In this document: piece by piece, positions 8,448 to 51,380 of the stretch
How positions within the stretch are numbered: the first letter of the stretch is position 1
Layout: every line of letters begins with the position of its first letter
NCBI RefSeq assembly: GCF_035084215.1
Contig: NC_090349.1
Location: 35,960,001 to 36,024,000, forward strand
Length of the DNA: 64,000 bases
Source: Heptranchias perlo
Taxonomy: Eukaryota
Reading direction: 5' to 3'
Position numbers and translations under genes: made by a program
Notes under the pieces: model-generated
Databases searched by the model: none
What the model saw: the letters and a program-made list of their open reading frames with translations, nothing else
What the model was told of the DNA's origin: nothing

Positions 8448-8538
8448 CCCACACTCACCTGACGAAGGAGAAAGCCTCCGAAAGCTTGTGATTTTCAAAT
8501 AAAACAGTTGGACTATAACCTGTTGTTGTAAGATTCCT
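8448..8538 (+). mobile_element. Penelope-type pLTR fragment with hammerhead, single arm
   Basis: TSD tccagcagaaat at 8436-8447 and 8539-8550. Homologous to the arms at 32404, 34043 and 50970. Confidence 0.85.
8455..8491 (+). ncRNA. Minimal type I hammerhead ribozyme motif
   Basis: TCAC-CTGACGA-A-GGAG(aaagc)CTCC-GAAA-GC-T-T-GTGA: stem I TCAC/GTGA, conserved core, palindromic stem III AGCT (dimer type). Predicted cut after 8487. Confidence 0.8.
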
Positions 8539-9514
8539 TCCAGCAGAAATTGTTCCAGTATCTCAAGTCTCTCTTCATAATTATAGTTTTCCAACCATGG
8601 CCACAGGTCAACACTCTGTAGATGTCACAAATGGTATAGGCACATCTTGTTTCCTTTTAGTCTGGATGCTCCTATGCCTAACACATGTGTACCATAGCAT
8701 ATATAGTTTTGGGTTATATTTGCTCTTGCTATATGTTTCCCCGTTTGGGGTTTATTGGATGGACTTGTTAGATTCTGCTGCACTTTGTTCCTATTTTTTA
8801 CTTTTTAAAAATAATGCACAGAAAATGCTGGAAATAGAGCAGGTCTGCTGGCATCTCAGTCCACAAAAAACTATCCTTAACCCAGCTTTTCTTTTCAGAT
8901 GCAAGAAAGCCCGTTTATTTCCAACATTGTGTGTTTATTATAAACTGCCCTCCTGCATTCCTTACCTTAAGCAAACAGATGGACTTCCCTTTGAGTGGAA
9001 TGGAAATCAGCTTTTAAACTCATTTTGTTCCCCAGCAAAACTCTATAACCTCCTGATTTAGGCCTGCAGCCTAAAGATAAATTATCTTAAAGAAACCTAA
9101 TCCACCCACAAAAGGCTAAAAAGCAATAGTTAAATGGAGACTGGAGTTATTCATTAAACAAGTGGATCAATGAGCCCAAGACTCAAGTGCGTTCTGGATG
9201 ACATGTCACAATTAGGCACACCCAATACCATTTATAGATCAGTAAAGAAATCATCACTCCACACAGGTTACAAGAATTCACTGCAAAGTTCAGTCATGTA
9301 ACTGCCTTTGACGTAAATCTGTGACTGCACCCTGAAATCTAGGAAGCACCTAGATGCCAATCACACTCAGTGATTAGACCACAACAGCAACTCCAGGATA
9401 CACACAAAAGAAGCTGTTAGGGTACTAGGACCAGTTTCCCCTGGTCGAATGAGCATGCACAGATGAGTCAGGGAAAAGAACAGAGAAACAGAACTAGTGG
9501 AAGAAAGGAAGGAA

Positions 9515-11070
9515 GTGGCATTTATGTAGCGTAGACAAACATCTCAAGGTGCTACACAAAAGCAAGAAAACACATGGATGCCGAGCCAAAGGAAGAGATA
9601 TAAAAGGGATAACCAAAGTTTAGTCAGAAGTGGGCTTTAAGAAGGATCTTGAAGAGGAGCGGGGGGTTTAGGGAGGGAATTACACAGCATGGGGCCTGGG
9701 TGGCTGAAGGCAAACCAGTGAATGGTGGAACGAAGGAAGGGGGGAGATGCATAACAGGCCAAAGTCGGAGGAAGAGAGTATGTGGGGGGTGAGGTTGTAG
9801 AACTGGAGGATGTTAGAAAGAGAGGGGCGAGGATATAAAGGGATTTTAAACAAGGACGATGAGAATTTGAGGCTGTGTGGGACCGGGAGCCAATGCAGGC
9901 CAGCAAAGACAGTGGTAATAGGCGAGTAGGATAGGATACAAGCAGCAGAATTTTGGATGAGCTGATGTTTATGGGTGGTTGATAATAGGAGGCTGGCCAG
10001 GAGAGCTTTACAATAGTCGAGTCTGGAGGTGACAAAGACACGGACTTTAGCATTAGGACTGAGGTAGGGGCAGAAGCATACGGTCTTTGCGATGGAGAGG
10101 ATATGGGGTCAGAAGCTCAACTTGGTGTCGAATACGATGCAGAGATTGCCAACAGTCTGATCCAGGAGACAGCCTGGGAGGGTGATGGAATCGGTGGTAT
10201 GGGTGAAGAGTTTGCGGCTGGGCCCAAAGACGACAACTTCGATTTTCCCAATGTTAAACTGAAGAAAATTGCGGCTCAACCAATGCTGGATGTCGGACAA
10301 GCAGCCACATAGCAGAGACGGTGGAGAGGTAGAGCTGGGTATTATCAGCATAAGCTGACCCCCTGCCTGCCGATCATTTCGCCAAGAGGCACCGTGTAGA
10401 TGAGAAAGAGGAAGGAGCCAAGGAAAAATCCTTGGGGGACTCTGGAGGTAACAGTGCAGTGGCGAGGAGAAAAGCCTGAGGTCCTCTAGCTACATTCAGA
10501 TAGGTAAGAGTGGAAGCATGCAAGGGGAGTCCCACTATGCCAGACAACACAAGAGAGGTGTTGGAGGAGGATGGTGTGCATGAGCACGTCCAAGGCTGCA
10601 CAGGTCGAGAAGGATGAGGAGGGATGATGTATCATGGGCATAGAGAATGGTCATTTGTGACTATGGTTAGGACAGTTTCAGTCCTGTGGCAGATGTGGAA
10701 ATCTCTGATTGGAGAGATTCAAACATGGAGTTGCAGGAAAGATGAGCCAGGATTCAGGGGACGACAACACGGTCAAGGACTTCAGAGGGAAACAGGGGAT
10801 TGGATATGGAACAGGAAATTGGATATGGAGCATTAGTTTACAACAGAGGAGTCAAAGATGAGTTCTTGTCAGGAGATGGGGTGATGTTGGCAGTTTTGAA
10901 AGGGAGGGTACAGTACCCGAGGAGAGAACCATTTACAATGTCAACTAGCATGGGGGCTAAGCAGCGAAGTTGGATGGTCAGCAGTTTTGTGAGAATGGGT
11001 CAAGGGAGCAAAAGGGGGGTCTCAAGGACAAGGGGAGCACACAGAGAGCATGAGCAAGATGTGATAGAAA
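9515..11070 (-). mobile_element. L2 LINE fragment (RT to 3' end), degenerate
   Basis: ORF 10109..10351(-) reads CLSDIQHWLSRNFLQFNIGKIEVVVFG. A degenerate GVPQG motif lies at ~10430 and an L2 tail at 9515-9560. Confidence 0.85.
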
Positions 11071-11117
11071 CATGGCTTGGCTTGGGGAAAGGGAGAAGCA
11101 GAAACTGCAGCTGAACA

Positions 11118-12586
11118 GAATCTTTTTGAGGAGGTCACAAACATGGTGGTTAGTGTGTATGTATGGATGTGTGTGGATGGAGTGTGTATGGATGTTATCT
11201 ATATGGACTTCCAGAAGGCGTTTGATAAGGTTCCGTACAAGAGATTAGCAAAAATTAGAGTGCACAGAATTGGAGGCAACTTTGTGACACGTTGGAAATT
11301 GGTTGGGAAGTAGGAGACAGTGGGGGATAAAGGGTACGGACTCTGATTGGCAGGATATGACACATGGTGTTCCCCAGAGATCTGTACTGGGGCTCAGCTT
11401 TTCACCATATTTACGACTTGGATGAAGATGACAGTTGTATATCGAAGTTTGCAGATGACACTAAGTTGGGAGGCACAGTAAATTGTGCAGAGGGGAGGAG
11501 GATGTTACAAAGGGCCATAGACATATTAAGTGAGTGGGCAAAACAGTGGCAAATAGAGTTCAAAATGGGGAAATGTGAGGTCATTCACTTTGGATCCAAG
11601 AAAGACAAATCAGAGTATTTTCTAAATGCTGAGAAACTAGGAATTGTGGATGAGCAAAGGGATTTGAGTCTCCATGTACACAAATCACTAAAATCTAGTG
11701 GCTAGGTTAAAAAAGAATCAAAAAGGCTAACAGAATGTTGGCCTTTATCCCATGGGGGTTGGAATATGAAGGGGGTGGAGTTATGCTCCAGTTGTATAAA
11801 GCCTTGGTCAGACCCCATCCGGAGTACTGCGTTCAGTTCTGGGTGCCGCACCTCAGGAAAGATATATTGGCTTTGGAAAGGGTACAGCGCAGATTCACCA
11901 GAATGATATTGGGGCTTAAAGAGTTAAATTATGAGGACAGGTTGCATAAACCTGGCTTGTATTCCCTCGAGTTTAGAAGATTGAGGAGTGATCTAACTGA
12001 CCTGTTTAAAATGGTTACGGGATTCCATAGAGTAGATACAGAGAAACTATTTCCTCTTGTGGGGGAAATTCAGAACAAGGGGGCATAATCTTAAAATTAG
12101 AGCTAAACCATTCAGGAGTTAAATCAGGAAGCATCTTTTCACACTAAGGGTAGAAGAAATCTGGAACATTCCCTCCCCAAAACGCTGTGGATGCCGGGTT
12201 AATTGAAACTTTCAAGGTGGAGATCAATAGATTTTTGTTAGGTAAGGAAAGGGTGGTGAGTGTCTGGAACGAGCTGCCAGAGGCAGTGGTAGAGGCGGGT
12301 ACAATTTTGTCTTTTAAAAAGCATTTGGACAGTTACATGGGTAAGATGGGTATAAAGGGATATGGGCCAAGTGCAGGCAATTGGGACTAGCTTAGTGGTA
12401 TAAACTGGGCGACATGGACATGTTGGGCCGAAGGGCCTGTTTCCATGTTGTAAACTTCTATGATTCTATGATATCGAGGGATATGGAGCAAAGCCAGGTA
12501 AATGGCATTGAGGTACAGATTAGCCATGATCTAACTGAATGGCGGAACAGGTTTGAGGGGCTGAATGGCCCACTCCTGTTCCTATG
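11118..12586 (+). mobile_element. CR1 LINE, 5'-truncated
   Basis: MDFQKAFDKVP, SKFADDTKLGG and LYKALVRPHPEYCVQFW. The 3' end is cctgttcctatg. Confidence 0.92.
12248..12471 (+). mobile_element. Young CR1 3'-end insert nested in older CR1
   Basis: WNELPEAVVEAG..FKKHLD with a ttctatga tail. It splits the host at ggtaagga/tatcgaggg and is near-identical to 14586-14797. Confidence 0.9.
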
Positions 12587-12649
12587 ACAAGTCCATGAGC
12601 TCCTTGCACTTGTTGGAAGTGAGGGTAGTGGGGCTTAAGGAAAGAAAGA

Positions 12650-12862
12650 TCTTTCATTTATGTAGTGCCTTTTACAATCTCAGGACATCCCAAAGTGCTT
12701 TACAGCCAATGAATACTTTTGAAGTGTGGTCACTGCTGTAATGTGGGGAAACACAGCAGCCAATTTTCAGGTAAGTTCCTGAAAACAGAAATGAGATAAA
12801 CGAACAATTAAACTGTTTTAGTGGTGTTGGTTGAAGGACAAATGTTGGACAGGACATTGGGA
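12650..12862 (-). mobile_element. Deu-type SINE 3' fragment
   Basis: Matches 5544-5750 (ctcaggacatcccaaagtgctttacagccaatgaa..tttgaagtgtggtcactg). Confidence 0.75.
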
Positions 12863-14261
12863 AACACAGCTAAAATTCCAGGAAAATTTAGTAGTATAAG
12901 AAAAGGTAATTTAATTTATTTAATCACTAAGTACCAATTGGCCCAATTACAAATGGCAGAACGCAGTATCTAAAAGGACCAGTAAAATGCCACAAGATTC
13001 AGAATGGATTTGACAGTGTAAAACAGTGCCCTGGTCTCCAGCAATTCGCCTGCATCAAATCTAACTCTCTTCTGGTTGAAGAGTCTATCTTTTCTCCTCC
13101 TCTCCTCTCCACCCCACGATCTATTTTAAGACCAACAGCTGTAGTAGAGGTGAAGTACTGCAGCCCCTCATTCCAAAGGAAACGCATCCTGCCTGGGATT
13201 ACAATGCAGGAAGGGCCCCAACTGTTGAATTGTTCAACCCAGCCGTCTGTGTGCTTGCAAGCAGGATTCAAGTTATTTTGTTCAGTAAATGACTTCCTCT
13301 GGGAAGAACGTCTGGTTGAAGCTTCAGTTTTTTTTTGGATACTGTATTTCCAGTATTTCTCCAAGAAAAAAGTGGTAGAAAAATGATTGTTCTATCGAGC
13401 TCCTGAGACAAACAGACTAAAGGCTGGTGATGTCTTGCATACTACAGTAAAGGGAAAGTCAGCCATAATTAATGATTCTTGTAGGGGCTGTTTTGTACAC
13501 AAGTATAAAACCTAAGCAGCACAGGTTTTGGGTGGGGGGGGTGGAAAAAGAGCGTGGAAGAGAGGATCGCTGCATAAGCTGAAGTACTCCGCCGATACCC
13601 TTTTCTTTTTCGTTGAGTATGATGTAAAAATGAAAGAAAAACGTTATAAAGATTAGAGATAATCTTTTTAGTACGGTGGATGGAATTCACTTGGTGTTTA
13701 GTTCCCATCCATTGTGCTCCACATGCAGGTCGACTACTATACATGCGTTTGGTTTGGTCTTTTCCTATAACAAGGAAGTACAGAGCAGTTCCTACAGGGC
13801 CCAGAAACTGAAGGTTGACGTATTGGATATAATGTAAAGTGTACTGAAAGCCTCTTACTCCCATAAAAAAGGAGCCACAGAATCAATTATTTGCCCCTGC
13901 CTGTCTCTAAACAATAAATTAGACTATACTCCCATCTCTGACAAGTGCTTTCAAAATCTGATTCTGTTGTGAAGTTAGGATTCTTTCAAATTCAGTTACT
14001 GCAAGTTTTGGTTGGAAAAAAAGCAACGTGTCACCTACGAGGCAGAGGATGCAAACTTACTGTTCTCTACCCCTGCAGAGACCTTGCATCCTTTAGGATT
14101 CAAATAATCCTTGAACACAAGTGCTCACTGCACTTCACATTTTTTCTCCAAGCCACTCCAGAAGATGTACATTTAATCAAAATACCACACTCTCGCCAGT
14201 GTCAGTCAGGTTCTAAAATAACTAACTAGATTCATAACCAAAAATTCAACAAGTAGGACAC

Positions 14262-15087
14262 AAGGTGTCTCTTGTCTTTGGTTCCAAACAGTATTAAGAC
14301 AGGAAGATCTTGGTTGGAAGACAGGTGTGCACAGCACCCACCTTTGGATCATTCAACCTGCAAATTGGACCATCTGAGGAAATATTAAGCCACTGATGTT
14401 TACCCCAGACAGCTCAAAAGCTAATAGGTTATTTAATCCGGTGGCCATAGATACAAGGACGGAACCACAAAAAGAATTTATGTAAAGTGGCCACAGTAAA
14501 AGGCATGATTTTTATTTATTTTCTTTACAGTTACACTCTGCTGACTCAGTTTCTTTACCCACAGTCTGCAATATGCCCCATGACTCATAGAATCATAGAA
14601 TCATAGAAGTTACAACATGGAAACAGGCCCTTCGGCCCAACATGTCCATGTCGCCCAGTTTATACCACTAAGCTAGTCCCAATTGCCTGCACTTGGCCCA
14701 TATCCCTCGATACCCATCTTACCCATGTAACTGTCCAAATGCTTTTTAAAAGACAAAATTGTACCCGCCTCGACTACTGCCTCTGGCAGCTCGTTCCTTT
14801 CACTTTCAGTTGTTTCACCCAGGGCCATCATGCTTCTCATGTTTGCTGTGTTGTCTATCTCTTTCACATGGGCACCAGACTTAATGAGCAATTAGTCTCT
14901 GAACTGTCTAGATTGCACATCAATGGCTTAATACTTTTCAGAAAGGCTTAATATTTCCTCATAGTCCAATTTCCAGATTGAATGATCCAAAGATGGGTGA
15001 TGTTCACACTTGTTAACATATAAATGGAGGTTCTCTCTTTAATTAACTCATTAATACTGTTTGGATCCCAAAGACACGAGACACCTT
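14262..15087. mobile_element. Old fold-back element with ~190 bp degenerate inverted arms
   Basis: 14262-14450 is the reverse complement of ~14860-15087, e.g. ggtgtctcttgtctttggttccaaacagtattaa vs ttaatactgtttggatcccaaagacacgagacacc, and ctttggatcattcaa vs ttgaatgatccaaag. Confidence 0.75.
14586..14797 (-). mobile_element. Young CR1 3'-end insert
   Basis: (tcatagaa)3 tail on +. About 5 differences from 12266-12471. Confidence 0.9.
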
Positions 15088-15214
15088 CTGGCAATCGGAC
15101 ATGCTGGAGCCTAACCTTAGCTTTACATCCGACACTACGAAGTATTATTTCTATGCAAAGCTAATTTCACCTCTATCTACCTACATACAGTTGCAAGAGA
15201 CTGATATTTGTTAT

Positions 15215-15380
15215 AGATGGGTTAACATTTCAGGTCTGGAACTTCATCAGAACTGGCAAAAGAACAAAACTGCAGAAGCTGGAAATAAAAAAAAACAAAG
15301 TTCTGGACACGCTTAGTAGGTCAGCATCTGTAGAGACAACAGACAAGCTGAAGTTTCACATGTGGACCCTTCAATCAGGA
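15215..15380 (-). mobile_element. Old Penelope-type pLTR remnants of a second family with decayed hammerhead motifs
   Basis: Minus strand 15253-15221 reads GTT-CTGATGA-agttccagacct-GAAA-TG-T-T-AAC. A more decayed motif lies at 15378-15347. Confidence 0.6.
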
Positions 15381-15851
15381 TTTGCAGACAGAATGGAGGT
15401 ACCCAGCAAAGCGATTGTCTAGTCTGCGTTTGGTCTCCCCAATGTGCAGTAAACTGCACTATGAGCAGTAAATGGAACATACTAGATAGAAAAAAAGCAT
15501 ATGTAAACTGCTGTCTCACATTGAAGCATCTGGGACCCTGGACAATGGTATGGGAAATGAACAGATGTTGCATATGCTACAGTTGCAGAGTGCCAAAGAA
15601 GATCAGCCAGTCGTAGGGGTGATGGAAAATTAAAGTTTATGCGAAGCACATCTCTGAAAATATATCGCCATAGTTTAAAGTTAGAATCTGGATTATATTT
15701 TTGAATTGATCACAGCATTCTTCAATTAGAAAAATGTTAAATTACACATTCAGCAGTAGGAATCATACAAAGTGTAATCGTTTCAAAGGCAGAATAAGAA
15801 AATACTTGGTAGGACGAGGCCTGATACAATCCTTTAAACTACTCTATTTAC

Positions 15852-19735: not shown

Positions 19736-19814
19736 GATAAAAGACTTCCTTAAAATATACAGTAGCATTGAATGGTTAGTAGTTTGCAGCATCCAGCCTG
19801 CTTAAAAACACAAT

Positions 19815-23979: not shown

Positions 23980-25748
23980 TTAGACAAAGTCAACATGGGT
24001 TTATGAAAGGGAAATCGTGACAAACCTACTGGAGTTTTTTTGAGGTTGTAACCGGTAGAATAGATAAGGGAGAACCAGTGGATGTGGTTTATTTGAATTT
24101 TTGGAAGGCCTTTGATAAAGTCCCACATAAGAGGTTAGTGTGCAAAATTAAAGCGCATGGGATTGGGGGTAATATACTGGCATGGATTGAAAATTGATTA
24201 ACAGACATGAAACAGAGAGTAGGAATAAATGGTTCTTTTTCGGGGTGGCAGGCAGCGACTTGTTTTTTTATTCGTTCATGGGATGTGGGCGTCACTGGCA
24301 AGGCCGGCATTTATTGCCCATCCCTAGTTGTCCTTGAGAAGGTGGTGGTGAGCCGCCTTCTTGAACCGCTGCAGTCCGTGTGGTGAAGGTTCTCCCACAG
24401 TGCTGTTAGGAAGGGAGTTCCAGGATTTTGACTCAGCGACAATGAAGGAACGGCAATATATTTCCAAGTCAGGATTGTGTGACTTGGAGGAGGTGAGTCA
24501 CTCGCCACAGAATACCCAGCCTCTAACCTGCTCTTGCAGCCACAGTGTTTATGTGGCTGGTCCAGTTAAGTTTCTGGTCAATGGTGACCCCCAGGATATT
24601 GATGGTGGGGGATTCAGCGATGGTAACGCCGTTGAATGTCAAGGGGAGGTGGTTAGACACTCTCTTGTTGGAGATGGTCATTGCCTGGCACGAATGTTAC
24701 TTGCCACTTATGAGCCCAAGCCTGGATGTTGTCCAGGTCTTGCTGCAAGACTAGTGGGGTACCGCAGGGATCAGTGCCCCAGCTATTCACAATATTCATC
24801 AATGATTTGGATGAAGGAACCAAATGTAATATTTACAAGCTTGCTGACGACACAACACTAGGTGGGATTGTGAATTGAGGGGAGGATGCAGAGGCTTCAA
24901 GGCAATTTAGACAAGTTGAGTGAGTGGGCAAATACATGGCAGATGCAGTATAATGTGGATAAATGTGAAGTTATCCACTTTGGAAGGAAAAACAGAAAGG
25001 CAGAGTATTATTTAAATAGTGATAGATTGGGAAATGTTGATGCACAAAGAGACCTGGGTGTCCTTGTACACCAGTCACTGAAAGCAAACGTGCAGGTACA
25101 GCAAGCAGACAGGAAGGCAAATGGTATGTTGGCCTTCATTGCAAGAGGATTTGAGTACAGGAGCAAGGATGTCTTACTACAGTTATACAGGGCCTTGAGA
25201 CCACACCTGTAGTATTGTGCACAGTTTTGGTCTCCTTACCCAAGGATATACTTGCCATAGAGGGAGTGCAGTCAAGGTTCACCAAGCTGATTCCTGGGAC
25301 GGCAGGACTGTCGTATGAGGAGAGATTGTGTAGGCAAAGCCTGTGTTCACTAGAGTTTAGAAGAATGAGAGGGGATCTTATTGAAACATATAAATTTCTG
25401 ATAGGGTTAGACAGACTGGATGCAGGAAGGATGTTTCCCCTGGCTGGGGGGTCTAGAAAGAGGGGTCACAATCTCAGGATACGGGGTAGGGCATATAGGA
25501 CTGAGATGAGGAGAAATTTCTTCAGAGGGTGGTGAACCTGTGGAATTCTCTACCATAGAAGACTGTGGAGGCCAAGTCACTGAATATATTTAAGAAGGAG
25601 CTAGACAGATTTCTAGACACAGAAGGCATCGAGGGGTATGGGGAGGGAGCAGGAATATGGTATTGAGATAGAGGATCAGCCACGATCATATTGAATGGCG
25701 GAGCAGGCGCGAAAGGCCGAATGGCCTACGCCTGCTCCTATTTTCTAT
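23980..25748 (+). mobile_element. CR1 LINE, 5'-truncated
   Basis: QHGFMKGKS, KAFDKVPH, WANTWQMQYNVDKCEVIHFG and RMRGDLIETYK. The 3' end is cctgctcctattttctat. Confidence 0.92.
24261..24748 (-). mobile_element. LINE family B 3' fragment with internal deletion, nested in CR1
   Basis: Matches 62992-63825 except for a ~340 bp deletion at ~24490. gact is repeated at both junctions. Confidence 0.9.
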
Positions 25749-27800: not shown

Positions 27801-28765
27801 GAAAAAAGGTAATGTGTTCAGCGAAACTGGTATGAAAAACTGTACAAACAGCCCACCCATCAGTTAACAGTTCTATAGACAACTGAGATCGGAAGTTGTA
27901 TTAACTTGCTTGCATTTAAAAATACAACCCAAGTCTCAAAGAGGGTCATTAAAACAGGTTTTATTGCACCAGTGCAAAGACTGCACAGTAAACACTAGCA
28001 GTTCAGTCTGGTTTGGATAACAAACTCAGTGAGAGCACTTACAAAATCCGTGATCACTGCCATTTTAAATAACATTCATTTAGGTTAGCCCAGAACAAGA
28101 ACTTGAAGTGTATGATAAAGGAAAATTTACTTCTGTATCCCCTTTTTTTGTTCTTGTATTTTGTGCTTCAACAGGCACTCTGGTTACAGATATTTAGTGT
28201 AGAGCCTCTCTTTTGGTAGCATGTGGGTGTCTAATGTTAGAAAGATTGTCAAGTACAACTTCAGTCTTCACCTCCAACACAGCAAGTTACTGATTTCCAT
28301 CAATGCCATTGTTTCAGGTCATCAGACAAAGGCTCTCACTGGCTGATCTTGCACATTTCCCAACAGCTGCTGTGTCAAGGGCAGGGAAACTCGGGGGTGG
28401 GGTGGGGGATAAGAGAAGACAGGAGAGAGAAAGTGCTACAGAGGATCTGGTGGAAGTCTGTGTATTGTGGTGTTGAGCAGAGAACCACACTTCCCGACTT
28501 TAGGATGGGTGGGGAAAGGAGTCCCAAGCTAATCCAGAGCAGCATTAAAAGAGCAAACTGCCTGCGGAGAAAATTATAGGTTTATATATCAAAAAAATAT
28601 TAGGCGTCTTTGAAATTAGTTACTACAAAACGGTTTTCTATCAGTGAGGCAGCATTTGGGTAAACAGCGACACAGTCTCTGTCTAAGAATCACTGGTACA
28701 TAAGATTGCAGCCTCAAACCAGCACCAGCTCCACAGGGCGAGCCTCAGCCTGACCAGATTATTTT

Positions 28766-28908
28766 TGATGTGGAGATGCCGGTGATGGACTGGGGTTGAC
28801 AATTGTAAACAATTTTACAACACCAAGTTATAGTCCAGCAATTTTATTTTAAATTCACAAGCTTTCGGAGATTTTCTCCTTCCTCAGGCAAACATTTGCC
28901 TGAGGAAG
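28766..28908 (-). mobile_element. Penelope-type hammerhead insert with tail and 14 bp fold-back
   Basis: TSD cagattatttttga at 28755-28768 and 28909-28922. Hammerhead on minus at 28892-28854. Short inverted arm cttcctcaggcaaa-ca-tttgcctgaggaag. Confidence 0.9.
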
Positions 28909-29464
28909 CAGATTATTTTTGAGCAGAGTTGCAATTTACTATTCTGCAGCTCAGATTGGTGACATTGCACAACTCTCTGCAGGGCTAGAATTTGATGGTG
29001 GTGGCTGATAACCAAAGAATGCACCAAAATACAAATACAGCTTTGGTTCTGTCTCGGGAGGGAAAACATACACATACCACATTTACACACTGGACTGGAG
29101 GCATGCCAGGCATTTTAGGAGTTTTCTACTCCGGACGGAAAGCACAAATTTTAGCCCTGCTGTACAGATAATCCTGGCATAATCAGCAAATGGTTGTGGA
29201 ATTAACATGTTTAAGGAAGGGCATCATGCTTTATTACAGCACTTTGAATATTCAGAGTTAATGGGGGAAAAAAAGTTCTTTATATAGAATACTCAGCAGA
29301 CCTGGGTGGGTGGTACAGAGAACACACAAATAACACGATCCCATGGCTGGAAAACATCAATGCCGAGCTGGCTGTTGGCAGCAACTGGCCTCAGCATCTC
29401 CAGGCTAAGGAGGAGAGGGGGAACAAATCTGGCTTCAATTCCAGCTCCTGATTATCCAATGATC

Positions 29465-32040: not shown

Positions 32041-32290
32041 ATCAGTGGACCCGACACTGAAGGAGCAGGAATAAAAACATTAACTGTAAGAGTAAAACAG
32101 TAAGAGGGGATTTCTACATCTGTTAATTCAACTCCCTCGCTCTGGTTAGGCTTTGTGGTAAGTGAGGTCACCGGCACTCACCATAAAAACTCAACAAGGT
32201 ACAGAAGGAGGTTTTGATCAGTTTTTAAAGCAGAAGACTGCTCCTGTTACTATCTGTCTTACTGTTACTGATACTATCCTATTAAGGATA

Positions 32291-32531
32291 ATTATAAACA
32301 ATTTTACAACACCAAGTTATAGTCCAGCAATTTTATTTTAAATTCACAAGCTTTCGGAGATTTTCTCCTTCCTCAGGCAAATGTTTTTCTCCTTCCTCAG
32401 GCTAACATTTGCCTGAGGAAGGAGAAAATCTCCGAAAGCTTGTGAATTTAAAATAAAATTGCTGGACTATAACTTGGTGTTGTAAAATTGTTTATAATTG
32501 TCAACCCCAGTCCATCACCGGCATCTCCACA
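32291..32531 (+). mobile_element. Penelope-type hammerhead fold-back insert (96 bp arms, 18 nt spacer, tail)
   Basis: TSD ctattaaggata at 32279-32290 and 32532-32543. Arms 32290-32385 and 32404-32499. Hammerhead core CTGAGGA..GAAAGCTT at 32413-32441. Confidence 0.92.
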
Positions 32532-33951
32532 CTATTAAGGATAGTATTAGATTAAAAGAAGAGGCCTATAATGTTGCCAAGAGTAGTAAGCCTGAGGATT
32601 GGGAGAATTTTAGAAACCAAAGGACCAAATAATTGATAGAAAGAGAAAATCGAATATGAAAGTAAACTAGCAAGAAATATAAAGACTGATTGTAAGAGCT
32701 TCTACAAGTATGTAGAAAGGAAGAGAGCAGCAAAAGTAAAACATTGGTCCCTTTGCGGTTGAGACTGGAGAAATTATAATGTGGAAATCAGGAAACGGCA
32801 GATGCGTTAAAAAAAATATTTTGTATCTGTCTTCACAGTAGAAGACAAAAAACATACCAGAAATAGTGGGGAACCAAGGGTCTAATGAGAGTGAGGAACT
32901 TAAAGTAATTAATATCAGTAGAGAAAGAGTGCTTGAGAAACTAACAGGACTAAAAGCTGATAAATCCCCTGGACCTGATGGCCTACATCAGAGGGTTCCA
33001 AAAGAGGTGGCTGCATTATAGTGGATGCACTGGTAATGATCTTCCAAAATTCTCTAGATTCTAGAACAGTCTCAACGGATTGGATGGTAGCAAATATAAC
33101 CCCACTATTCAAGAAAGGAGGAACAGCAGAGAAAACAGGGAACTACAGGCCAGTTAGCCCGACATCAGTCATCGGGAAAATGCTAGAATCCATTAAGTGG
33201 TAACAGGGCACTTAGAAAATCATATGATTAGGCAGAGTCAACATGGTTTTATGAAAGAGAAATCATGTTGACAAATTTATTAAAAGTTTTTTGAAGATGT
33301 AACTAGCAGGATAGATAAAGGGAACCAGTGGATGTAGTATATTTGGATTTTCAAAAGGCATTCGATAAGGTGCCACATAAAAAGGTTGTTACGCAAGATA
33401 AAGGCTTATGGGGTTGGGAGTAACATTAGCATGGATAGAGGATTGGTTAACCAACAGAAAACAGTAGGGATAAACGGGTCACTTTCAGGTTGGCAGGCTG
33501 TAACTAGTGGGGTGCCGCAAGGATCGGTGCTTGGGCCTTAGCTATTTACAATCTATATTAATGACTTAGACGAAGGGACCGAGTGTAATGTATCCAAGTT
33601 TGCTGACGTTACAAAGCTAGGTGGGAAAGTAAACTGTGAAGAGGACACAGAGAGTCTGCGAATGGATATAGACAGGTTAAGTGAGTGGGCAAGAAGGTGG
33701 CAGATGGAGTATAATGTGGGGAAATGTGAGGTTATTCGCTTTGGTAGGAAGAACAGAAAAGCAGAATATTTTTTAAATGGTGAGAAACTATTAAATGCTG
33801 GTGTCCAGAGAGACTTGGGTGCCCTTGTACAAGAAACACAAAAACTAAGCATGCAGGTACAGCAAGCAATTAGGAAAGCAAATTGCATGTTGGCCTTTAT
33901 TGCAAGGGGTTTGGAGTACAAGAGTAGGGAAGTCTTACTACAATTGTACAG

Positions 33952-34170
33952 TTGTAAACAATTTTACAACACCAAGTTATAGTCCAACAATTTTTATTTG
34001 AAATCTACAAGCTTTCGGAGGCTTCCTCCTTCCTCAGGTAAATTTACCTGAGGAAGGAGGAAGCCTCCGAAAGCTTGTAGATTTCAAATAAAAATTGTTG
34101 GACTATAACTTGGTGTTGTAAAATTGTTTACAACTGTCAACCCCAGTCCATCACCGGCATCTCCACATCA
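33952..34170 (+). mobile_element. Penelope-type hammerhead fold-back insert, perfect 190 bp spacer-less palindrome plus tail
   Basis: Arms 33948-34042 and 34043-34137 are exact reverse complements. TSD tacaattgtacag (33939-33951) / tacagttgtacag (34172-34184). It interrupts the CR1 ORF. Confidence 0.93.
34044..34080 (+). ncRNA. Minimal hammerhead ribozyme motif (mirror copy on minus strand 34041-34005)
   Basis: TTAC-CTGAGGA-A-GGAG(gaagc)CTCC-GAAA-GC-T-T-GTAG. Confidence 0.75.
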
Positions 34171-36429
34171 TTACAGTTGTACAGGGCTTTGGTGAGACCT
34201 CAACTGGTGTTCTGTGTACCATTATGGTCTCAACTAAAGAAGGATATACTTGCTTTAGAGTTGGTGCAACGAAGGTTGACTGGATTAATTCCTGGGATGA
34301 GAGGGTTGTCCTATGAAGAGAGGTTGAGTAGAATGGGCCTATATTCTCTGGAGTTTAAAAGGATGAGAGTTGATCTCATTGAAACATAAGATTCTGAGGG
34401 CTTGATAGGGGAGATGCTGAGAGGTTGTTTCCGCTGGCTGGACAATCTAGAACAAGGGGGCATAGTCTCAGGATAAGGGGTCAGCCATTTAATACTGAGA
34501 TGAGGAGGAATTCCTTCACTCAGGGTGTTGTGAATCTTTGGAATTCTCTACCCCAGAGGCTGTGGATGCTGAGTCATTGAATATATTCAAGGCTGAGATA
34601 GTAAGATTTTTGGACTCTAGGGGAATCAAGGGATGTGGGGATCAGGCAGGAAAGTGGAGTTGAGATTGAACGGCTGAGCAGGCTCGAGGGGCTGTGTGGG
34701 CTTCTCCTGCTCCTATTTCTTATGTTCTTATATATACAGCACACCATTCACTAAGGATGCAGAGTATTCTACATACATTCATAAACTGGTAAAAAGCTAT
34801 TTTCCAGCACTCCAATATAATTCCAACCCTGTACTTTGTATAAGGTCTGTGCTTATGAAAAAGCAATTGGAAGCTTTTTTGTTTAAAGTTCCAATTGAGG
34901 GCGCTTTTGATCTACAACCACATCCGGTGGTAGATCTGTGGTGCAGACAGAGAGCGCAGTTGCCAGTTTTAAATCATGTCGAAACACTACTTGCAATAAA
35001 GACAAGTGGAACCCTACAAGCCCCTTTTCTACTCAGTTACGTAGGCAGGACGTGGCAAAGCAGATACTTCATGGCATCTACCATCATCTTGTTTTAGCCA
35101 GAACAAAAGTGCAGGGCAGACAAGGAGGAGGCAGGGGAAGAAGAGGGGAAATGGTAGCATAGTAGGCCACAATGTTTGCCCTCTAATGCAAAAAAGAATG
35201 GAAGGATACAGGTTCACACCTGTGGTTCTCGTATGATGAGTTACTTATCTTAAATCATGTCTTGACAGGAGAAGCTTCTCCACAAGGGGGGAGGGCAGAT
35301 GGCTGACAGGTTCCTGCACCTCCCGCCGGTGAGTCAGTGCCACATTAGCAGCAGCCAAAATCTCAGCATGTTATACAGTTTCTCCTGCTGGAAGTGCATA
35401 AATGTAGACATCGGGCAAGAGGGTTGAGCTCAGCTGTGATAGCACCCCCCCGTCACGGTTGAATACCCTGTCATCACTTGCTGTCAAAGGTCGGAGAGCA
35501 ACCGTGGAATCATACCTCAGCAGGGAGCTGGCACTTTTAGGAAAGGAGGCGAAAAATTAGCGGGGGTGGGGGGAGATATTCCCCACTGGGTTACAGCAAA
35601 AATTAGCTGACAAAATGCTCGTCTAGATCACAAAATGAGTCAAAACTACAGGGCTTTGCTATAAAAAGTCACCCACCCAAGCCAAAAGAAACACCACAGT
35701 GCAGATTTCCAATTTCTTTTTTAAAAGTCTAAATAATTCAGAGATGCTAGTGGCCTTTTGTCGTTCTGCTTTATTATGCAAAATATAGAATAAATGAGCA
35801 AGAGAGCGTGAGAGAAAGAGAAAGATTTGAAATCTGCAGATAAAATCTGACCTTAAAATAATTCTGCAAAATGCAAGTGGAGCCAGCCATAAACAGCCTG
35901 TTTTAGCTCATCACTGGATAGCCAAATGCACTAGATGTTTCGAAGCCAATCAGCTAAGTGAATCACCAGCTTTGCATTCTTCCCCCATGCAACTCGCGTT
36001 ACGGTCACTAGCCATCTCCCCCTCTCCCAGGTCACCCAACATGCTATCCTTAGCTAAACAATGATTTAATATATAATGGAGAACTATTAATACATTTCAA
36101 ATCATTTCAAACCTTGCCAAATAGATGTTTCAGTTCTGAAAATCTTCCCCGTTATTGTACATTTGCAGTGCGGGAAAAAAAATGGTCTTAGTCCAGGCAC
36201 CCAATCTAGGTACATATGACAGCTGATTCTATACAAAAGAACATGGTACTTAGTGGCACCACTGAATTACATAATCCTAAAGACAGTATTGCATTAAGAA
36301 ATCAGTAATACCATTTTTTTTTAATAAAAATTATAACTCGAGAGACAGCACATATGGACTTGTTAACTTTTGAGAAGGAAGAGGACGCAGTTTCAATCTT
36401 CGCGTAGAGTTTGCCACCTCAGCCATATT

Positions 36430-44110: not shown

Positions 44111-44459
44111 GTACAGGGCAAAGCTTTCGATCTTCATGTAGTCACAGTTCTACAGATTCTAGCTATTCTTCTGGAATCTGATTAGCTGCACAAATACAGT
44201 ATTTTAAATCTCAGATGTCTCCTCGTCCAGACAGGATATTGTCTTAACCTGCTGCTATACCATTTCCTCACTAAACCTTCGATTTGATGTCCAAATCTGG
44301 ACCAGCAGGCTTTCACACCTACCGCCAGCTCAAGCTGTTACAGGGTGTGCAACTGATCAAAGTCTGATAGGTACTTGTAAAATTAGGTGGATGCTCTAAA
44401 ATAAATATATACACGCATACAAAGCTCTGAGACATCGTGCAATGAAGTTAGCGTATACG

Positions 44460-44820
44460 CTTACATCACCCATGTGCTCGCTGACCTACATCAGCTCCCA
44501 GTCCACCAATGCCTCAAATTTAAAATTCTTATCCTTGTGTTTAAATCACTCCATGATCTTGCCCTTCCCTATCTCTCTAACCTCCTCCAACCCTCTGAGA
44601 ACTCTGCGGTCCAAAATTCTGACCTCGTGTGCATCCCCGACTTCCTTCACCCCACCACTGGCAGTCGTGCATTCTGCTGCCTAGGCCTTAAACGCCATTT
44701 CCCTTCCTAAACCTCTCTGTCTATCACTCCTCCTTTAAGACACTCCTTAACACCTGCCTCTCCCCCGTCCTATTGTCTCCTTCTTTGGCTCGGTGTCAAT
44801 TTCTGTCTGATTACGCTGTG
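44460..44820 (+). mobile_element. L2 3' fragment
   Basis: ORF 44474..44710 reads LADLHQLPVHQCLKFKILILVFKSLHDLALPYLSNLLQP. Confidence 0.85.
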
Positions 44821-46309
44821 AAACGTAGCAGCCAATTTACGCACAGCAAGATTCCACAGATAGCCATACGCACATACCTGCACCATTCACTCTTCTGACT
44901 CTGGATTACTGGTTTAATCACTCCATCATAGGCCAGTCACTACCCTGCCACCTTCTAGAATTCTCTCTCTCAAAAACCACTTGCCGTCTCTTTCTTTTTT
45001 GAGCACACCTTCAACCACCCCTTAAATTGCCTCCCTTTCCCTGCTTGGTGTCCACTTTTCGTCAAGTACTGAGGTGCTTCTTTTACAGGTGGAATATGAT
45101 AAAAAGACAACCATTATTTGGCAGATCATTTGCAGAACAAAGATTTGCCATGTACATGAATAGAACATAAAAATGACACGAACTAGACCAAATGAGAAGA
45201 GCAACATACCCAGTGGACTGCACAGTAATGGAGAGACAGGATGTTGATTTTGTGTTAGATAATGCATTCTCCACCCTATGTTCTATACAGCCCCTAAAAG
45301 AAGCAGATGCACTGTGTTGTGTTTATATTAGCGAATCACTTCCACTGGAAGCAATGAATTCACCAGCAGCGACACAGTTTCTTTCCCAGTGAAGAAAATG
45401 CTTCCAAGTCACGTTTCCCTGACCATATTTCAGAGCGTGGACCTTCCCTGGAGTGTTTGGGCAGACTGTATACTGAATTAGAAAAAAAATATTAGTGGCT
45501 TACGGTATCTGTGCTGCCGCAGAAGCTAGTGTCAATGTTCCGGAGCTGCAACTGAGGGCAGGGCTGCCTCTGATAGCAGTACTGTGATGTAAACAGTATT
45601 GGAAAGGGTCTGTATATACACACATAAATCAAGCTCAGAACAGAGGTCCTAACCTTGTCATTCCAATACTTTCACTGTCTTGAATACCTCAGGAAGAATA
45701 TTACGAGTTCCAAAGCAGATTTAGACTTGTGGCAGGCAAGGCAAATCATTCATACAGTTTGAAAGCAGCATACAAATGATGCCGAACATCATGGAAAAGA
45801 GTGGGGAGAGGGCATCAGTGCCAACAATTTTTAATCTCTTATTCTGGCACTGTACTACATAGTCACTGAAAACAAAATGCCTCAGTTAAAGAAAATACAT
45901 ATTCCACTCTCCAGCTAGCCTGGGGCAAGATCCTGGTCGTATTAATGATCTAGAGCAAAAGGGAAAGCAACAAAAAGTTTCTCCCTCTAATTTTCTCTAG
46001 CTCATTTTTAGCCTCTTGCAGTTTTCAGCCTGTACTAAAAGTAGTCAATTTTATTCCTTTTTGTTTTGAAAAACAGGATTGATTTTCTCTAGGTAAAATT
46101 CAACGGTGCTTTCAAACTTGAGTCCAGTGACTATGGGCAGCCCTTCGCACTTACACTGCTAAATTTGCTCGCATCTCAGTGACAATTGTAGGCCCATGAA
46201 TAAGAAAGCCAAATTTAGCAGTGTAAATGCAAAACCACTGGATCATTTAGGAAACAACTGGATATAGCAGTGTGTGTTTGAGTGGGGTGGGGGGAGGAAA
46301 GAGAGACCT

Positions 46310-46565
46310 GAAGGGTCTTTCTGCACTCTCAGATGGACATAAAAGATCATGACACTATTCAAAGAGGAATTCACCCGGTGTCCTGGTCAATATTTATCCC
46401 TTAATCAACATCTAAAACAGATGATCTGGTCATTTATTTCATTGCTGTTTGTGGGACCTTGCTGTGCACAATTTGGCTGCCATGCTTCTTACTTTACAAT
46501 AGCACAAGCAATGAAGTACTTTTGAAGTGTAGTCAAAGCACTTTGGGACGTCCTGAGGTCATGAA
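46310..46565 (+). mobile_element. Deu-type SINE fragment
   Basis: ctctcagatggacataaaagatc..tcctggtcaatatttatccct..cattgctgtttgtgggaccttgctgtgcacaatttggctgcc. Confidence 0.75.
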
Positions 46566-48872
46566 AGGCCCTTTAAAAACTTATAACTGTGATATTGTAA
46601 ATGAAAATAAGGAAATGGCGGACATGTTAAATAATTACTTCGCGTCAGTATTTACAGTAGAGGACGAGGATATCCTGCCGGACGCCCCAAGGAAACTAAT
46701 TTTGAATCAGGGACAGGGACTCAGCACAATTAACATGAGCAAATTAACAATAATGAAGAAAATAACGGCACTGAAGAGTGACAAATCTCCAGGACCAGAT
46801 GGTTTCCAACCCAGGGTTTTAAAGGAAGTAGGAGAGAACATTGCAGAAGCCCCAACTATAATTGTCCAAAGTTCTCGCGATTTAAGAACTGTTCCTTTAG
46901 AATGGAAAATAGCGGAGTGACATGTGCAATTTAAGAAAGGTGAGAGGGGGAAACCAGAGAATTGTAGACCAGTTAGCCTAACATCTGTTGTCGGGAAACT
47001 ACGAGTGTCTATAATTAAGGAGAGAGTGACTGAACACCTTGAAAATTTTCAGCTGATCAGAGAGCACCAGCATGGATTTGTGAAGGATAGATTATGCCTG
47101 ATGAACCTGATTGAATTTTTTGAAGAAGTAACTAAAGTAGTGGACAGTGGAATGTATATGGATGTTGTTTATATGGACTTCCAGAAGGCATTCGATAAAG
47201 TCCCTCATAACAGACTGTTAGCTAAAGTTGAAGCTGAGAAGTTGAAATTATTGACCTGGTTAGGAAATTGGCTGAGCAGCAGGAGACAGAGAGTAGAGAT
47301 AATAGGCAGGTATTCAAATTGGCAGGATGAGACAAGTGGTGTCCCACAGGGATACAGGGCCTTGATGAGACTACACCAGGAGTAGTGTGTGCAGTTTTGG
47401 TCTCCTTACCTATGAAAGGATATACTTGCCAGAGGGAGAGCAGCGAAGGTTCACCAGACTGATTCCTGGGATGGCAGGACTGTCATATGAGGAGAGATTG
47501 GGTTGACTAGGCCTCTATTCACTAGAGTTTAGAAGAATGCGAGGGGATCTCATTGAAATGTATAAAATTCTGACAGGGCTTGACAGACTGGATGCAGGGA
47601 GGATGTTTCCCCTGGCTGGGGGTCCAGAACGAGGGGTCACAGTCTCAGGATACCGTGTAGGACATTTAGTACTGAGATCAGGAGAAATTTCTTCACTCAG
47701 AGGGTGGTTAACCTTTGAAATGCTCTACCACAGAAGGCTGTGGAGGCCAAGTCACTGAATATATTTAAAGAGATAGATTTCTAGACACAAAAGGCATCAA
47801 GGGGTATTGAGACAGAGGATCAGCCATGATCATATTGAACGGCGGAGCAGGCTCGAAGGGCCGAATGGCCTACTCCTGCTTTCTATGGATCTGTGTTGGG
47901 ACCTCAACTATTCACTATTTATTAACGACTTAGATGATGGGATAGCGAGCCACATACCCAAGTTTGCCGATGACAAAGATAGGCAGCATTGTAAGCAGTG
48001 TAGAGGGAAGCACAAAATTACAGAGAGATATTAATAGATTAAGTGAATGGGCAAAACTGTGAACAGGATTTCAATGTAGGCGTGTGAGGTCATCGACTTT
48101 GGACCTAAAAAAAAATAGATCAGAGTACTTTCTAAATGGTGAAAAGCTCAAAATAGTGGACGTCTAAAGAGACTTAGGGGCCCTTGTATGTCGACAATTA
48201 AAATGTCACGGACAGGTACAGAAAATAATCAAAAAGGCTAGTGGATTACAGGCCTTTATATCGAGAGGACTAGAATACAAGGGGGTAGAAGTTATGCTAC
48301 AGTTATACAAAGCCCTGGTTAGACCACACCTGGAGTACTGTGTTCAGTTCTGCGCACCGTACCTTAGGAAGGATATACTGGCCTTAGAGGGAGTGCAGCG
48401 TAGATTTACCAGAATGATAACTGGACTCCGAGGGTTAAATTACAAGGCGAGATTACACAAACTAGGGTGTATTCCCTGGAATTTAGAAGATTAGGGGGTT
48501 ATTTGATCAAAGTTTTCAAGATATTAAGGGGAACTGATGGGGTAGATAGAGAGAAACTATTTCCGCTGGTTGGGGAGTCTAGGACTTGGGGACGTAGCCT
48601 AAAAATTAGCACCAGGATTTTCAGGAGTGAGGATAGGAAACACTTCTACACGGAAAGGATAGAAGAAGTTTGGAACTCTCTTCCACAAACGGCAGTTGAT
48701 GTTAGCTCAATTGTTAATTTTAAATCTGAGATTGATAGACTTTTGTTAACCAAAGGTATTAAGGGATATGGGGCTATGGCAGGTATATGGAGTTAGGTCA
48801 CAGATCAGCCATGATCTCGTTGAATGGCAAAACAGGCTTGAGGGGTTAAATGGCCTACTCTTGTTCCTATGT
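46566..48872 (+). mobile_element. CR1 LINE, 5'-truncated
   Basis: LNNYFASVFT, KSPGPDG, QHGFVK, MDFQKAFDKVPH, GVPQG and LVRPHLEYCVQF. The 3' end is cttgttcctatg. Confidence 0.93.
47354..47886 (+). mobile_element. CR1 3' fragment of another subfamily nested in CR1
   Basis: Closely matches 25186-25748. It interrupts the host at cccacagggat/ggatctgtg (ggat duplicated). Confidence 0.88.
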
Positions 48873-50679
48873 GTAAATGCAAGTCTTTCTTTATGAATGA
48901 AGGATGGGCTGACTGGCAGTGCTCATCCATATTTACCCCGTGATTTTGTAAACAATGTAAAAAAAAAAGTAAAAGCACCTCAACTGACTACGTCCCACTA
49001 AGGGTTCCTTTACAGCACAATTATATGTAAAATCACATCACCCAGCGTCCTGAGGCTGTGGAATCTCACCCTGTTAATATTAGAAAGCAGACTCTACAGC
49101 AACTGAACAGATAAACAAGTGCAAGCACAGGAATTTTACAGTTGTGTTTTTCAACTTCATTTTTGCCCAACATCTTCCTTAATGGCTGAGGAAACCACAT
49201 ACTAACCAGAAGACTGCTCAAGTTGTCACCAAAAATCACGGCTGTACCTCCAGCAGCACTGCTTATATTGCCACCAAGGATACTATTGCCTCTGGCGACA
49301 CTGGCAAAACAAAGCATCTCTTTTGGTGGGGCTGAGTCTCTGGAGGTAGCAGTACCTTTTCAATTATTTTATCACACCATCATTAAAGTCAGGATTGGTA
49401 CCTGCAGCTGCAACAGACAGAACCAGCATTTAAAAGCTATTAAAAAATGAAAGGACGGCAAATATTGATTTCAAACTTTAGAATGCTTGGATTACATGTT
49501 TTCATTAAAATATTGGTAATCAGACTTTAAAGAGAGCAATCGTGTAATTGACAATCTGTTGTCAGATACAAATGAACCGGGGGGGGGATCCACGCAATTG
49601 CTCTTCAGCTTGCTTTAGCCCAAGAGTGCAATATATTGACCACACACACTTCAGGAGACTGTGGCAAGAAACACTAGAGTCAAAATTCAGGAATCAGTTA
49701 TAACCGATCCCTCACCGCAGTGAATAAGGATATTTACAGCATTTTATTTAACAAAGATATTTCGTAATTTCTGCACAGTATACCAACAATGAAGCTCATT
49801 CTAACTTCCTATGACTCAGTCGTGCTTAAACGGTATATTAAAACCACTTTTTAAATGAACAGCAGCAAAGGGCAATTCTTATGCTAATGTGGAGCAGTTT
49901 ATGTCAATGTCATCATCACCACAGAGTGCTTAAGGCTTTTCAGTTTTGAGGATCCAGAACTTCCTCTTACAAAAGGAAGGGGAGACCCAGTGGAAACACT
50001 GGGCATTCTTGGCAGCTCAAAACAGTACACACATTATATCACGATCACCAAAGACAGCATTTTTAAACCAAAAACAATGAAAATATTCTTTTCCACTTTA
50101 AAATTCACAGGACTGAGTCACTCATATTTGAGGTTTTGGTCAATTTGAGATTCTGTTTACAACAGATTTTGCTGATAACTAACACAGCTAGGCTGGCGTG
50201 GTGTAAAAATGAAACCTTTGGCACTGACATCTCAATTAGTAAGAGCACTGCTTGGCATGGAACATCATGACGCAGACCAAGGTGGTCCCAGGTCTGTGTT
50301 GAGTTAGCTGATCTGAGGCAGGGAGGCTCACACAAGCTGTGCGTTAGCATCTAGCATCATCTCAGTTTACTTTGATATAAAATGTTTAGATACTTGGAGA
50401 TTGTATTATGGTGACAACAGCTGGCCTGGAAAAAACATTTTGAGTGCTCAACTACACATCAGTAAGTCACAGGTACAAGTACTCAAGCTACTTTTCATGG
50501 GGTAGACTTCATCCACTGAAAAAAAACACCCAGTGATTCTTCCTCCTAATCATTATCCAGCAACGACTGTTGGAACCATACATGTGGACAGTGGATGAAG
50601 ACAGCTTTGAGCTCTGTTGTGTTGTCAAATGACCTGTTGACACTCATCAGTCTCGCAGCAGGGAATCAAATTAAAATTT

Positions 50680-51380
50680 GCACTTTAAGTATCTTTAACT
50701 CAATGAAATGTCCTAAGGCACTTTACTGGCAGAAGGGAAGGTACGAGGAGTGGAGAGAGAGAGAGAAGGGGGAATCTGAGCAATAAGGGAAGTACAAGAC
50801 GTAGATTTTCAGGAGGTGCCAAGAGGTAGCAATGATGTGGAGATGCCGGTGATGGACTGGGGTTGACAATTGTAAACAATTTTACAACACCAAGTTATAG
50901 TCCAGCAATTTTATTTTAAATTCACAAGCTTTCGGAGGCTTCCTCCTTCGTCAGGTAAATGTTCAGGAGCTCCTTGAACATTTACCTGACGAAGGAGGAA
51001 GCCTCCGAAAGCTTGTGAATTTAAAATAAAATTGCTGGACTATAACTTGGTGTTGTAAAATTGTTTACAAGAGGTAGCAAGGCAGTGGATTTAGGAAAAG
51101 AATTCATAATGCAGGGATACGATTGCTGGATACACAGTAGACTAGAGCTAGAAGGGCAGGGCCTGCCTGCTGGGATACAAGGCTAGACAAGACCGCATAG
51201 GTAGGTATAAGTGTGACCAGAGAAAGGGTTGAAAATGGGGTCAAAGTCGACATGGTGGGGAACAAGGTTTGGAGTGCAGAAGACAGTTAGCAAGAAATAA
51301 AGTGGAACAGACAGGATCCTTCTCTGGAGACACAGAATAGGAACAGTAAAGAGGCCTGAATTAAGAAGTTTCAAATACGA
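50680..51380 (-). mobile_element. Old L2 fragment hosting a Penelope-type insert
   Basis: aaatgtcctaaggcacttt tail; gaggtagcaaggcagtggatttaggaaaagaattc. Confidence 0.55.
50833..51070 (-). mobile_element. Penelope-type hammerhead fold-back insert (100 bp arms, 37 bp tail)
   Basis: TSD caagaggtagcaa at 50820-50832 and 51068-51080. Arms 50870-50969 and 50970-51070 differ by one extra T. Hammerhead core CTGACGA at 50986. Confidence 0.93.

Follow-up and report, generated by a model that had tools for sequence, protein, structure and literature searches.

In a 64 000-nt stretch of DNA from Heptranchias perlo (RefSeq assembly GCF_035084215.1, contig NC_090349.1, positions 35 960 001 to 36 024 000 of the forward strand; 'the window' below, numbered from its first letter) we found five short inserts, A to E, that are solo pseudo-long terminal repeat (pLTR) ends of a Penelope-like element (PLE), with a minimal hammerhead ribozyme in each of eight arms. 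They form a real, new family of a known kind; its oddity is an apparently fixed 5′ limit just upstream of the ribozyme core. The explanation that we favour, with a probability of roughly 0.55, is that the inserts are pLTR ends of an endonuclease-bearing PLE whose reverse transcriptase (RT) ran off the 5′ end of its RNA just before the core.

The five inserts and their target sites

A first-pass annotation of the window had placed five related inserts at 8448, 28766, 32291, 33952 and 50833, each with a target-site duplication (TSD) of 12–14 bp. All five are present at these positions, 91–241 bp long and with their duplications, that of D carrying one mismatch (Table 1; +1 denotes C3 of the hammerhead core). 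BLAST searches of the window with four arm queries detected eight long arms (91–133 nt) and one short stub, all within A–E, and nothing else below E = 0.05; a profile search of the window gave eight matches with E < 1e-25, followed by two stubs, in B and C.

The TSDs directly abut the ends of the insert in five of five cases, and no poly(A) tail was seen at any end. In a chance control, an exact repeat of at least 12 bp was found in 1 of 3000 random window pairs. The A+T fraction of the duplications ranges from 0.54 to 0.79, compared with about 0.57 window-wide (n = 5). Remnants of long interspersed nuclear element (LINE) RT genes are abundant in the window; the named relatives of one of them come from sea turtles and Callorhinchus milii (52–56% identity). 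Insert D interrupts such a remnant; both of its flanks can be aligned to a single paralogous LINE copy (24991–25371), where they overlap by 13 nt, and this copy shows the empty site.

Table 1. Inserts A–E with their target-site duplications, and the second PLE family of the window
Feature	Position	Strand	Interval	C3	Remark
A, single arm without tail	8448..8538	+	-11..+80	8459	predicted cleavage after 8487
B, long arm with tail	28766..28892	-	-5..+119/122	28887
B, inverted stub	28891..28908	+	-9..+9		2-nt overlap with long arm at the join
C, arm without tail	32291..32385	-	-9..+86	32376
C, centre	32386..32403	-	+15..-2		ribozyme stub copied again, plus one extra base
C, arm with tail	32404..32531	+	-9..+119	32413
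D, arm without tail	33952..34043	-	-6..+86	34037	A-run has one extra A
D, palindromic junction	34042-34043				loop-less
D, arm with tail	34042..34171	+	-6..+124	34048
E, arm with tail	50833..50965	-	at least -11..+122	50954
E, centre	50966..50974	.			within 10-bp palindrome; places 5′ limits between -11 and -20
E, arm without tail	50975..51070	+	at least -11..+82/85	50986
TSD of A, 12 bp	8436-8447, 8539-8550
TSD of B, 14 bp	28755-28768, 28909-28922				last 3 nt of left copy shared with tail end
TSD of C, 12 bp	32279-32290, 32532-32543
TSD of D, 13 bp	33939-33951, 34172-34184				one mismatch; inside LINE RT remnant
TSD of E, 13 bp	50820-50832, 51068-51080				first 3 nt of right copy shared with arm end
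Decayed PLE, second family	15216-15620	-			GIY-YIG-like remnant (15381-15488), then two degenerate hammerhead-like motifs

Over -5..+77 there is no difference between inserts B and C; from this pair D and E diverge by 6–12% and A by 13–17%, A being the most divergent lineage (83–87% identity to the others). Given the identity of B and C over this interval and the four palindromic centres, which all differ, the inserts represent about four lineages and five separate junctions. The four different centres also led us to reject descent from one palindromic master. The two arms inside each palindrome (C, D and E) are identical, although the TSD of D has mutated.

The hammerhead motif

With a descriptor of the minimal type-I hammerhead we obtained eight matches, all in arms of A–E, against a mean of 0.04 per dinucleotide shuffle (50 shuffles). 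AATAAA stands at +40 in all eight arms. By the descriptor, helix I has 4–8 bp and helix II 4–5 bp; helix III lacks a loop and could be formed only between two molecules. The core nucleotides, the bulge before helix II, G10.1–C11.1, the palindromic 15.2–16.2 and NUH are found in eight of the eight arms, with predicted cleavage after +29 in each. The first four of these features agree with the PLE minimal-hammerhead consensus in the supplement of PMC4209133, where a turtle entry has the same G15.2/C16.2 core variant with AAUAAA downstream.

Helices I and II are present in the minimum-energy fold of four of the five arms tested, and the folding z-scores of arms range from -1.8 to +0.2. In the alignment of arms, 102 of 104 helix cells (98.1%) are paired, a value as high being reached in 3 of 500 shuffles, while slid controls gave 22–56%. 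Within the helices, a pair of helix II is swapped between A-U and G-C, and three forms occur at one pair of helix I. It was reported that minimal PLE hammerheads self-cleave at a low level or with the assistance of protein (PMC4209133, PMC11167929), the hammerhead of an anole PLE cleaving only with the PLE protein (PMC11167929).

In the predicted ensembles the end of the tail (+113..+117) pairs with the 5′ strand of helix II in D and with -19..-16 in E. Judging from these models, such pairing is a possible switch that would keep the ribozyme off in RT templates. Also, microRNA models matched C and D; the scores were below gathering thresholds and reflect only the palindromes, and these candidates were set aside.

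Arms, tails and junctions

The 3′ ends fall into two classes, +80..+86 (A, C, D and E) and +119..+124 (B, C, D and E), 33–40 nt apart. Each of C, D and E has one tail-bearing and one tail-less arm, making the tail one-sided, and four of the five inserts (B–E) consist of head-to-head inverted arms with a palindromic junction. In the predicted fold the short end is at the 3′ side of an inner hairpin, and a few bases beyond an outer stem comes the long end. This anatomy is that of PLEs: their tail is a repeat of 34–37 bp (PMC2377424) or 30–40 bp (PMC8557442), and rotifer Penelope elements have head-to-head arms, palindromic junctions and solo pLTRs (PMC3846280). In the Poseidon PLE of the anole the tail was traced to two internal RT start sites, both target strands are cleaved and extended, and uncleaved RNA is the main template (PMC11167929). 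The RT start of the Anolis PLE is 111–118 nt after the start of helix II; here, the distal ends are 111–116 nt after it.

The motif, the junctions and the classes of 3′ ends thus support the suggestion of the first-pass annotation that the inserts are terminal repeats of PLEs, carry minimal hammerheads of the dimer type and have inverted arms and a tail. With no parent element recovered for the five inserts, their PLE membership rests on non-coding signatures. The inserts have no open reading frame (ORF), all three sense frames having stops by the AATAAA region. The arms of C, D and E fold into a perfect hairpin of ∼95 bp (-156 to -182 kcal/mol), which hides the ribozyme.

Some further observations concern the arms. 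In all of them a GT-rich stretch near +62..+72 comes after the AATAAA at +40, as in the layout of a poly(A) site, and a possible 3′ splice site (CAG after a C-run) is located within the tail at about +90..+98. The tail arm of D has a C just past the short-end position (34134), where B, C and E carry T; the target base at the left junction of D (33948-33951) matches this C, which suggests priming guided by microhomology or conversion between arms.

Clustering of the 5′ limits

The 5′ limit is -11 in A (where similarity to the other inserts fades near -8), -5 in the tail arm and -9 in the inverted stub of B, -9 in both arms of C, -6 in both arms of D (overlapping by 2 nt) and, ambiguously owing to the palindromic centre, -11 to -20 in E. 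These values agree, within the ambiguity of the junctions, with the distances of 11, 5, 9, 5 and 16 nt given earlier. All the 5′ ends, from four lineages, are located 5–20 nt upstream of the core, in one 15-nt span; in the lineage of B and C three arms end at -9 (or -10). Among all BLAST and profile matches in the window there was no shorter or longer copy. The clustering is real within the window and, in agreement with the first-pass annotation, it is not at the cleavage site (+29); truncation at that site was rejected, the ends being 34–49 nt upstream of it.

One could think of ordinary 5′ truncation by an RT of very low processivity, combined with chance and with selection of the window, in which case no fixed boundary would exist. 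PLE insertions are typically heavily 5′-truncated (PMC8557442), solo minimal hammerheads are widespread (PMC4209133), and we deal with five inserts in a window flagged for this very pattern. Still, the probability of a span ≤15 nt is at most 3.7e-4 under geometric truncation with a mean of 30–1000 nt, and at most 1.4e-3 under uniform truncation nulls. Geometric truncation also predicts 7–25 shorter copies for each copy in the span; the window has none, so that a bias of the reader within the window is excluded, and the expected shorter copies lacking the core are missing. When we conditioned on an intact ribozyme, the probability was 0.013 for a mean extension of 30 nt and 0.0016 for 50 nt. 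We consider chance truncation quite unlikely.

Three other origins of the shared ends were tried and rejected. An RT stop at a lariat branch point would give ends at -1 or -2. Later collapse of longer palindromes does not account for A, which has no second arm and yet has the same limit. Snap-back of a single cDNA disagrees with the loop-less junction of D and with the centre of B, which has sense-strand bases that the long cDNA could not supply.

Proposed run-off at the RNA 5′ end

According to the explanation that we favour, each arm would combine, in this order, a minimal type-I hammerhead (helix I of 4–6 bp, helix II of 4–5 bp), AATAAA and a stem-loop region that holds both RT start sites. 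The duplications seen at all five inserts would result from staggered nicks made 12–14 bp apart by the PLE protein. From both nicks, cDNA would be started at internal positions of the uncleaved RNA, one distal (+119..+124) and one proximal (+80..+86), leaving one arm with the tail and the other without it; the two kinds of ends are observed, and the priming is proposed by analogy with the anole PLE. RT would read through the ribozyme and run off the 5′ end of the RNA ∼9–20 nt upstream of the core, this end being, most simply, the transcription start in the pLTR. Slightly trimmed 3′ ends of the cDNAs would then anneal via 2–4 nt of microhomology, yielding the head-to-head palindromes that we see in B–E (the order of events is our suggestion), while a single arm, as in A, would appear if only one cDNA was joined.

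An internal promoter and an RNA start within the pLTR were described for Penelope of Adineta vaga and Drosophila virilis (PMC3846280, PMC2377424). As transcription of PLEs begins at an internal promoter of the pLTR, each transcript has a 5′ copy of the RT start region. The position of the ribozyme between the RNA start and the RT start, and not a stop of RT, would account for its retention. In Penelope of D. virilis the RNA starts at 371, the intron covers 416–491 and C3 is at 496; by our arithmetic, which assumes one numbering, about 49 nt lie between the start of the spliced RNA and the core. The centre of C, in which +15..-2 is copied again after -9 was reached, can be read as a jump back on the template, an event to be expected at a template end.

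Several results weigh against this explanation or against the ribozyme on which it builds. The number of events is small (n = 5), and they come from one window pre-selected for the pattern; if the ribozyme is taken as intact and processivity beyond it as very low (a mean extension of 20 nt), the clustering is obtained with P = 0.055. The limits vary from -5 to -20, so that trimming or several start sites are needed, and the extra G expected from copying of a cap is seen at none of the five junctions. The stub of B ends at +9, at neither of the RT start sites. It is also known that such palindromes have been explained by self-priming on an antisense template (PMC3846280). The covariation is thin, with a two-sided change in just 1 of 13 pairs among eight related alignment rows, and the four other shuffle measures were not significant (457, 31, 486 and 28 of 500). 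By nearest-neighbour energies the strand-swapped dimer is not favoured (-10.9 to -18.5 kcal/mol, versus -11.8 to -19.4 for two monomers). In a check that the first-pass annotation had itself proposed as a possible refutation, there was no Rfam hammerhead model among the nine matches in the window (E up to 5), or among matches to two single arms (E up to 10); a miss by Rfam is plausible for a motif that lacks loop III. Finally, neither a parent element with RT and GIY-YIG domains nor, in the collections searched, a copy of this family outside the window was found; the sequence upstream of -20 and any promoter are thus unseen.

A somewhat unlikely alternative keeps the RNA end and changes the fate of the product: the inserts would be stranded strong-stop products of an LTR-like strand transfer of a PLE, or else a self-propagating mini-pLTR. 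The RNA would start just before the hammerhead and be polyadenylated or cleaved just past its downstream copy, the ribozyme serving as terminal redundancy. RT would prime at the 5′ copy of the start site, run off and normally jump to the 3′ copy, which a ribozyme dimer would hold near; failed jumps would be integrated as 90–240 bp units. The accessible text of PMC2377424 sees no obvious mechanism of pLTR regeneration, and hammerhead cleavage was unnecessary in vitro (PMC11167929). As a mini-pLTR, an internal promoter combined with an internal RT start could make a self-sufficient non-autonomous element of ∼130 nt with a fixed 5′ end; a non-autonomous RNA of this length as the mobile unit, one of the two possibilities raised in the first-pass annotation, is compatible with the data.

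Does the fold set the boundary?

The other possibility raised there was that, on a long template, RT stalls at the ribozyme fold, or at a dimer of ribozymes in a ribonucleoprotein (RNP), or changes template at such a place. In favour of this idea, every end coincides with the 5′ strand of helix I or lies shortly past it, and the ends in C, D and E are symmetric; moreover, the anole hammerhead cleaves only with the PLE protein, so that an RNP structure is present in that system (PMC11167929). The place of the stop speaks against it: the part of the fold that RT would reach first is helix I's 3′ strand (+30..+35). No arm of the eight ends there or within the fold, and the ends (-5..-20) are all past the fold as a whole. 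In the anole assay the product was shortened together with the template's 5′ end, and mutants of the catalytic core left the size of the product unchanged, though such mutants may keep the fold (PMC11167929). We regard an RT stop at the fold as quite improbable.

The idea would be partly rescued if the fold set the boundary at the RNA level. Here a 5′-to-3′ exonuclease would trim a longer RNA up to the folded or protein-bound ribozyme domain, with run-off of RT at the end thus made. The limit found most often, -9, lies 3 nt beyond the base of helix I at -6; in E, -19..-16 pairs with the end of the tail (+113..+116) with p ∼0.9, which makes -20 likewise the edge of a predicted domain; and trimming fits the missing cap-derived G. 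On the other hand, the low stability seen in the z-scores speaks of weak helices, the closing stem has 4 bp and is found in one copy, and the accessible literature that we examined contains no report of nuclease resistance for minimal hammerheads. We judge such trimming unlikely.

Improbable origins: circular RNA or a DNA transposon

Monomers of retrozyme-like circular RNA, or DNA transposons similar to miniature inverted-repeat transposable elements (MITEs), make a very unlikely source of the inserts. Retrozymes of the non-LTR type have pLTRs as their source and exist as monomers (bioRxiv 10.64898/2026.07.22.740005), and C, D and E resemble fold-back elements. However, the ends are not at the cleavage site, and a circular intermediate of the retrozyme type is incompatible with the inserts, as there are no tandem units and a circle has no end for RT to stop at; none of the five tandem arrays of the window is within an insert, and all paired arms are inverted. 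Against a MITE-like origin we note that A has no inverted arm, that the arms are unequal by the tail, that the length of the TSD varies (12–14 bp) and that the four centres all differ. Nor do the inserts look like tRNA-derived short interspersed nuclear elements: they have no A tail, and no tRNA gene was found in the window, although a decayed head could be missed.

Comparison with known systems

It has already been published that minimal hammerheads reside in pLTRs, that there are thousands of solo copies and that inverted arms and tails occur (PMC4209133). Our literature search, with most subscription papers and repeat databases outside its scope, returned no report of 5′ ends clustering just before the core in the accessible texts. 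The minimal PLE hammerheads of PMC4209133 share with the present ones the type-I core without loop III, the bulged base, the G-C first pair of helix II, the palindromic 15.2–16.2 and an AU-rich 3′ flank. They are mostly solo copies, taken for truncated PLEs, with opposite-strand pairs also known; such pairs are about 100–700 bp apart there, whereas the cores here are 11–37 bp apart. The accessible part of that paper has no analysis of 5′ breakpoints and no cartilaginous fish in its alignment; on our side, no parent ORF is available.

The Poseidon element PAc of Anolis carolinensis (PMC11167929) is like the present family in having two internal RT start sites that define the tail, extension of both strands and an uncleaved template. 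The PAc ORF starts in helix II, in contrast to the early stops in our arms, and the accessible text on PAc reports no clustered 5′ limit.

Penelope of A. vaga and D. virilis (PMC3846280, PMC2377424) shares with the inserts inverted 5′-truncated pLTRs, head-to-head palindromes, TSDs, solo pLTRs and a one-sided tail, there of 31–37 bp. Their pLTRs are ∼180–220 bp or variably truncated and mostly flank an ORF, unlike the inserts, which are the pLTR end alone and have clustered 5′ limits; the TSDs of rotifers are 8–10 bp (PMC3846280), shorter than those in the window.

Non-LTR retrozymes (PMC7229834; bioRxiv 10.64898/2026.07.22.740005) are likewise short, non-coding, hammerhead-bearing, related to pLTRs and present as dispersed monomers. 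They form head-to-tail tandems and circular RNA, with mostly canonical hammerheads, while the arms here are single or inverted and come with a PLE tail and TSD.

Parent element and a second PLE family

In the search for the parent, 38 of 69 listed ORFs of the window were scanned with Pfam; none contained GIY-YIG, and four RVT_1 matches came from LINE-type remnants. For copies outside the window, contigs of bacterial and archaeal genomes were scanned twice with patterns, with 0 hits, and plasmids gave no match. A protein search with an antisense reading frame of five arms yielded 0 of 1337 candidates at E up to 10, and five short motifs retrieved one unrelated paper from the literature.

The window does carry a decayed PLE, which is of a family other than that of the five inserts. 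Its hammerhead-like motifs have C3 at 15378 and 15250, 128 nt apart. The GIY-YIG remnant had no Pfam match by itself and no word-indexed homologue; with phmmer it gave seven matches, two of them having a Pfam GIY-YIG domain and one more being clearly similar by eye, while the remaining ones were repetitive and uninformative. The remnant together with the hammerhead-like motifs shows that another endonuclease-bearing PLE family has been in this genome.

Some features of the window lie outside the inserts. An inverted pair of 195 nt (12259-12453/14610-14804; 96% complementary, 2156 nt apart) is probably two young copies of another short repeat, and a weak inverted similarity of 46 nt (8811-8856/8897-8941; 74%) may be an old palindromic insert of another family. 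The region 52400-53350 is GC-rich, with overlapping open frames on both strands, and resembles a CpG island or first exon; it had no Pfam match. A perfect 28-bp tandem repeat in three copies occupies 61722-61805.

Implications

For minimal-hammerhead motifs, counts of about 4,000 (coelacanth) and 9,000 (Xenopus) have been published (PMC4209133). In H. perlo, five inserts in 64 kb would extrapolate to ∼78 inserts per Mb, a density valid only if this one window is typical. Double-stranded RNA could also arise from C, D and E by way of their perfect hairpins of ∼95 bp.

If the fixed 5′ limit fails genome-wide, the inserts are ordinary truncated PLE ends. If it holds genome-wide, the limit would mark the end of the RNA template, and it would explain the thousands of solo minimal hammerheads in genomes.

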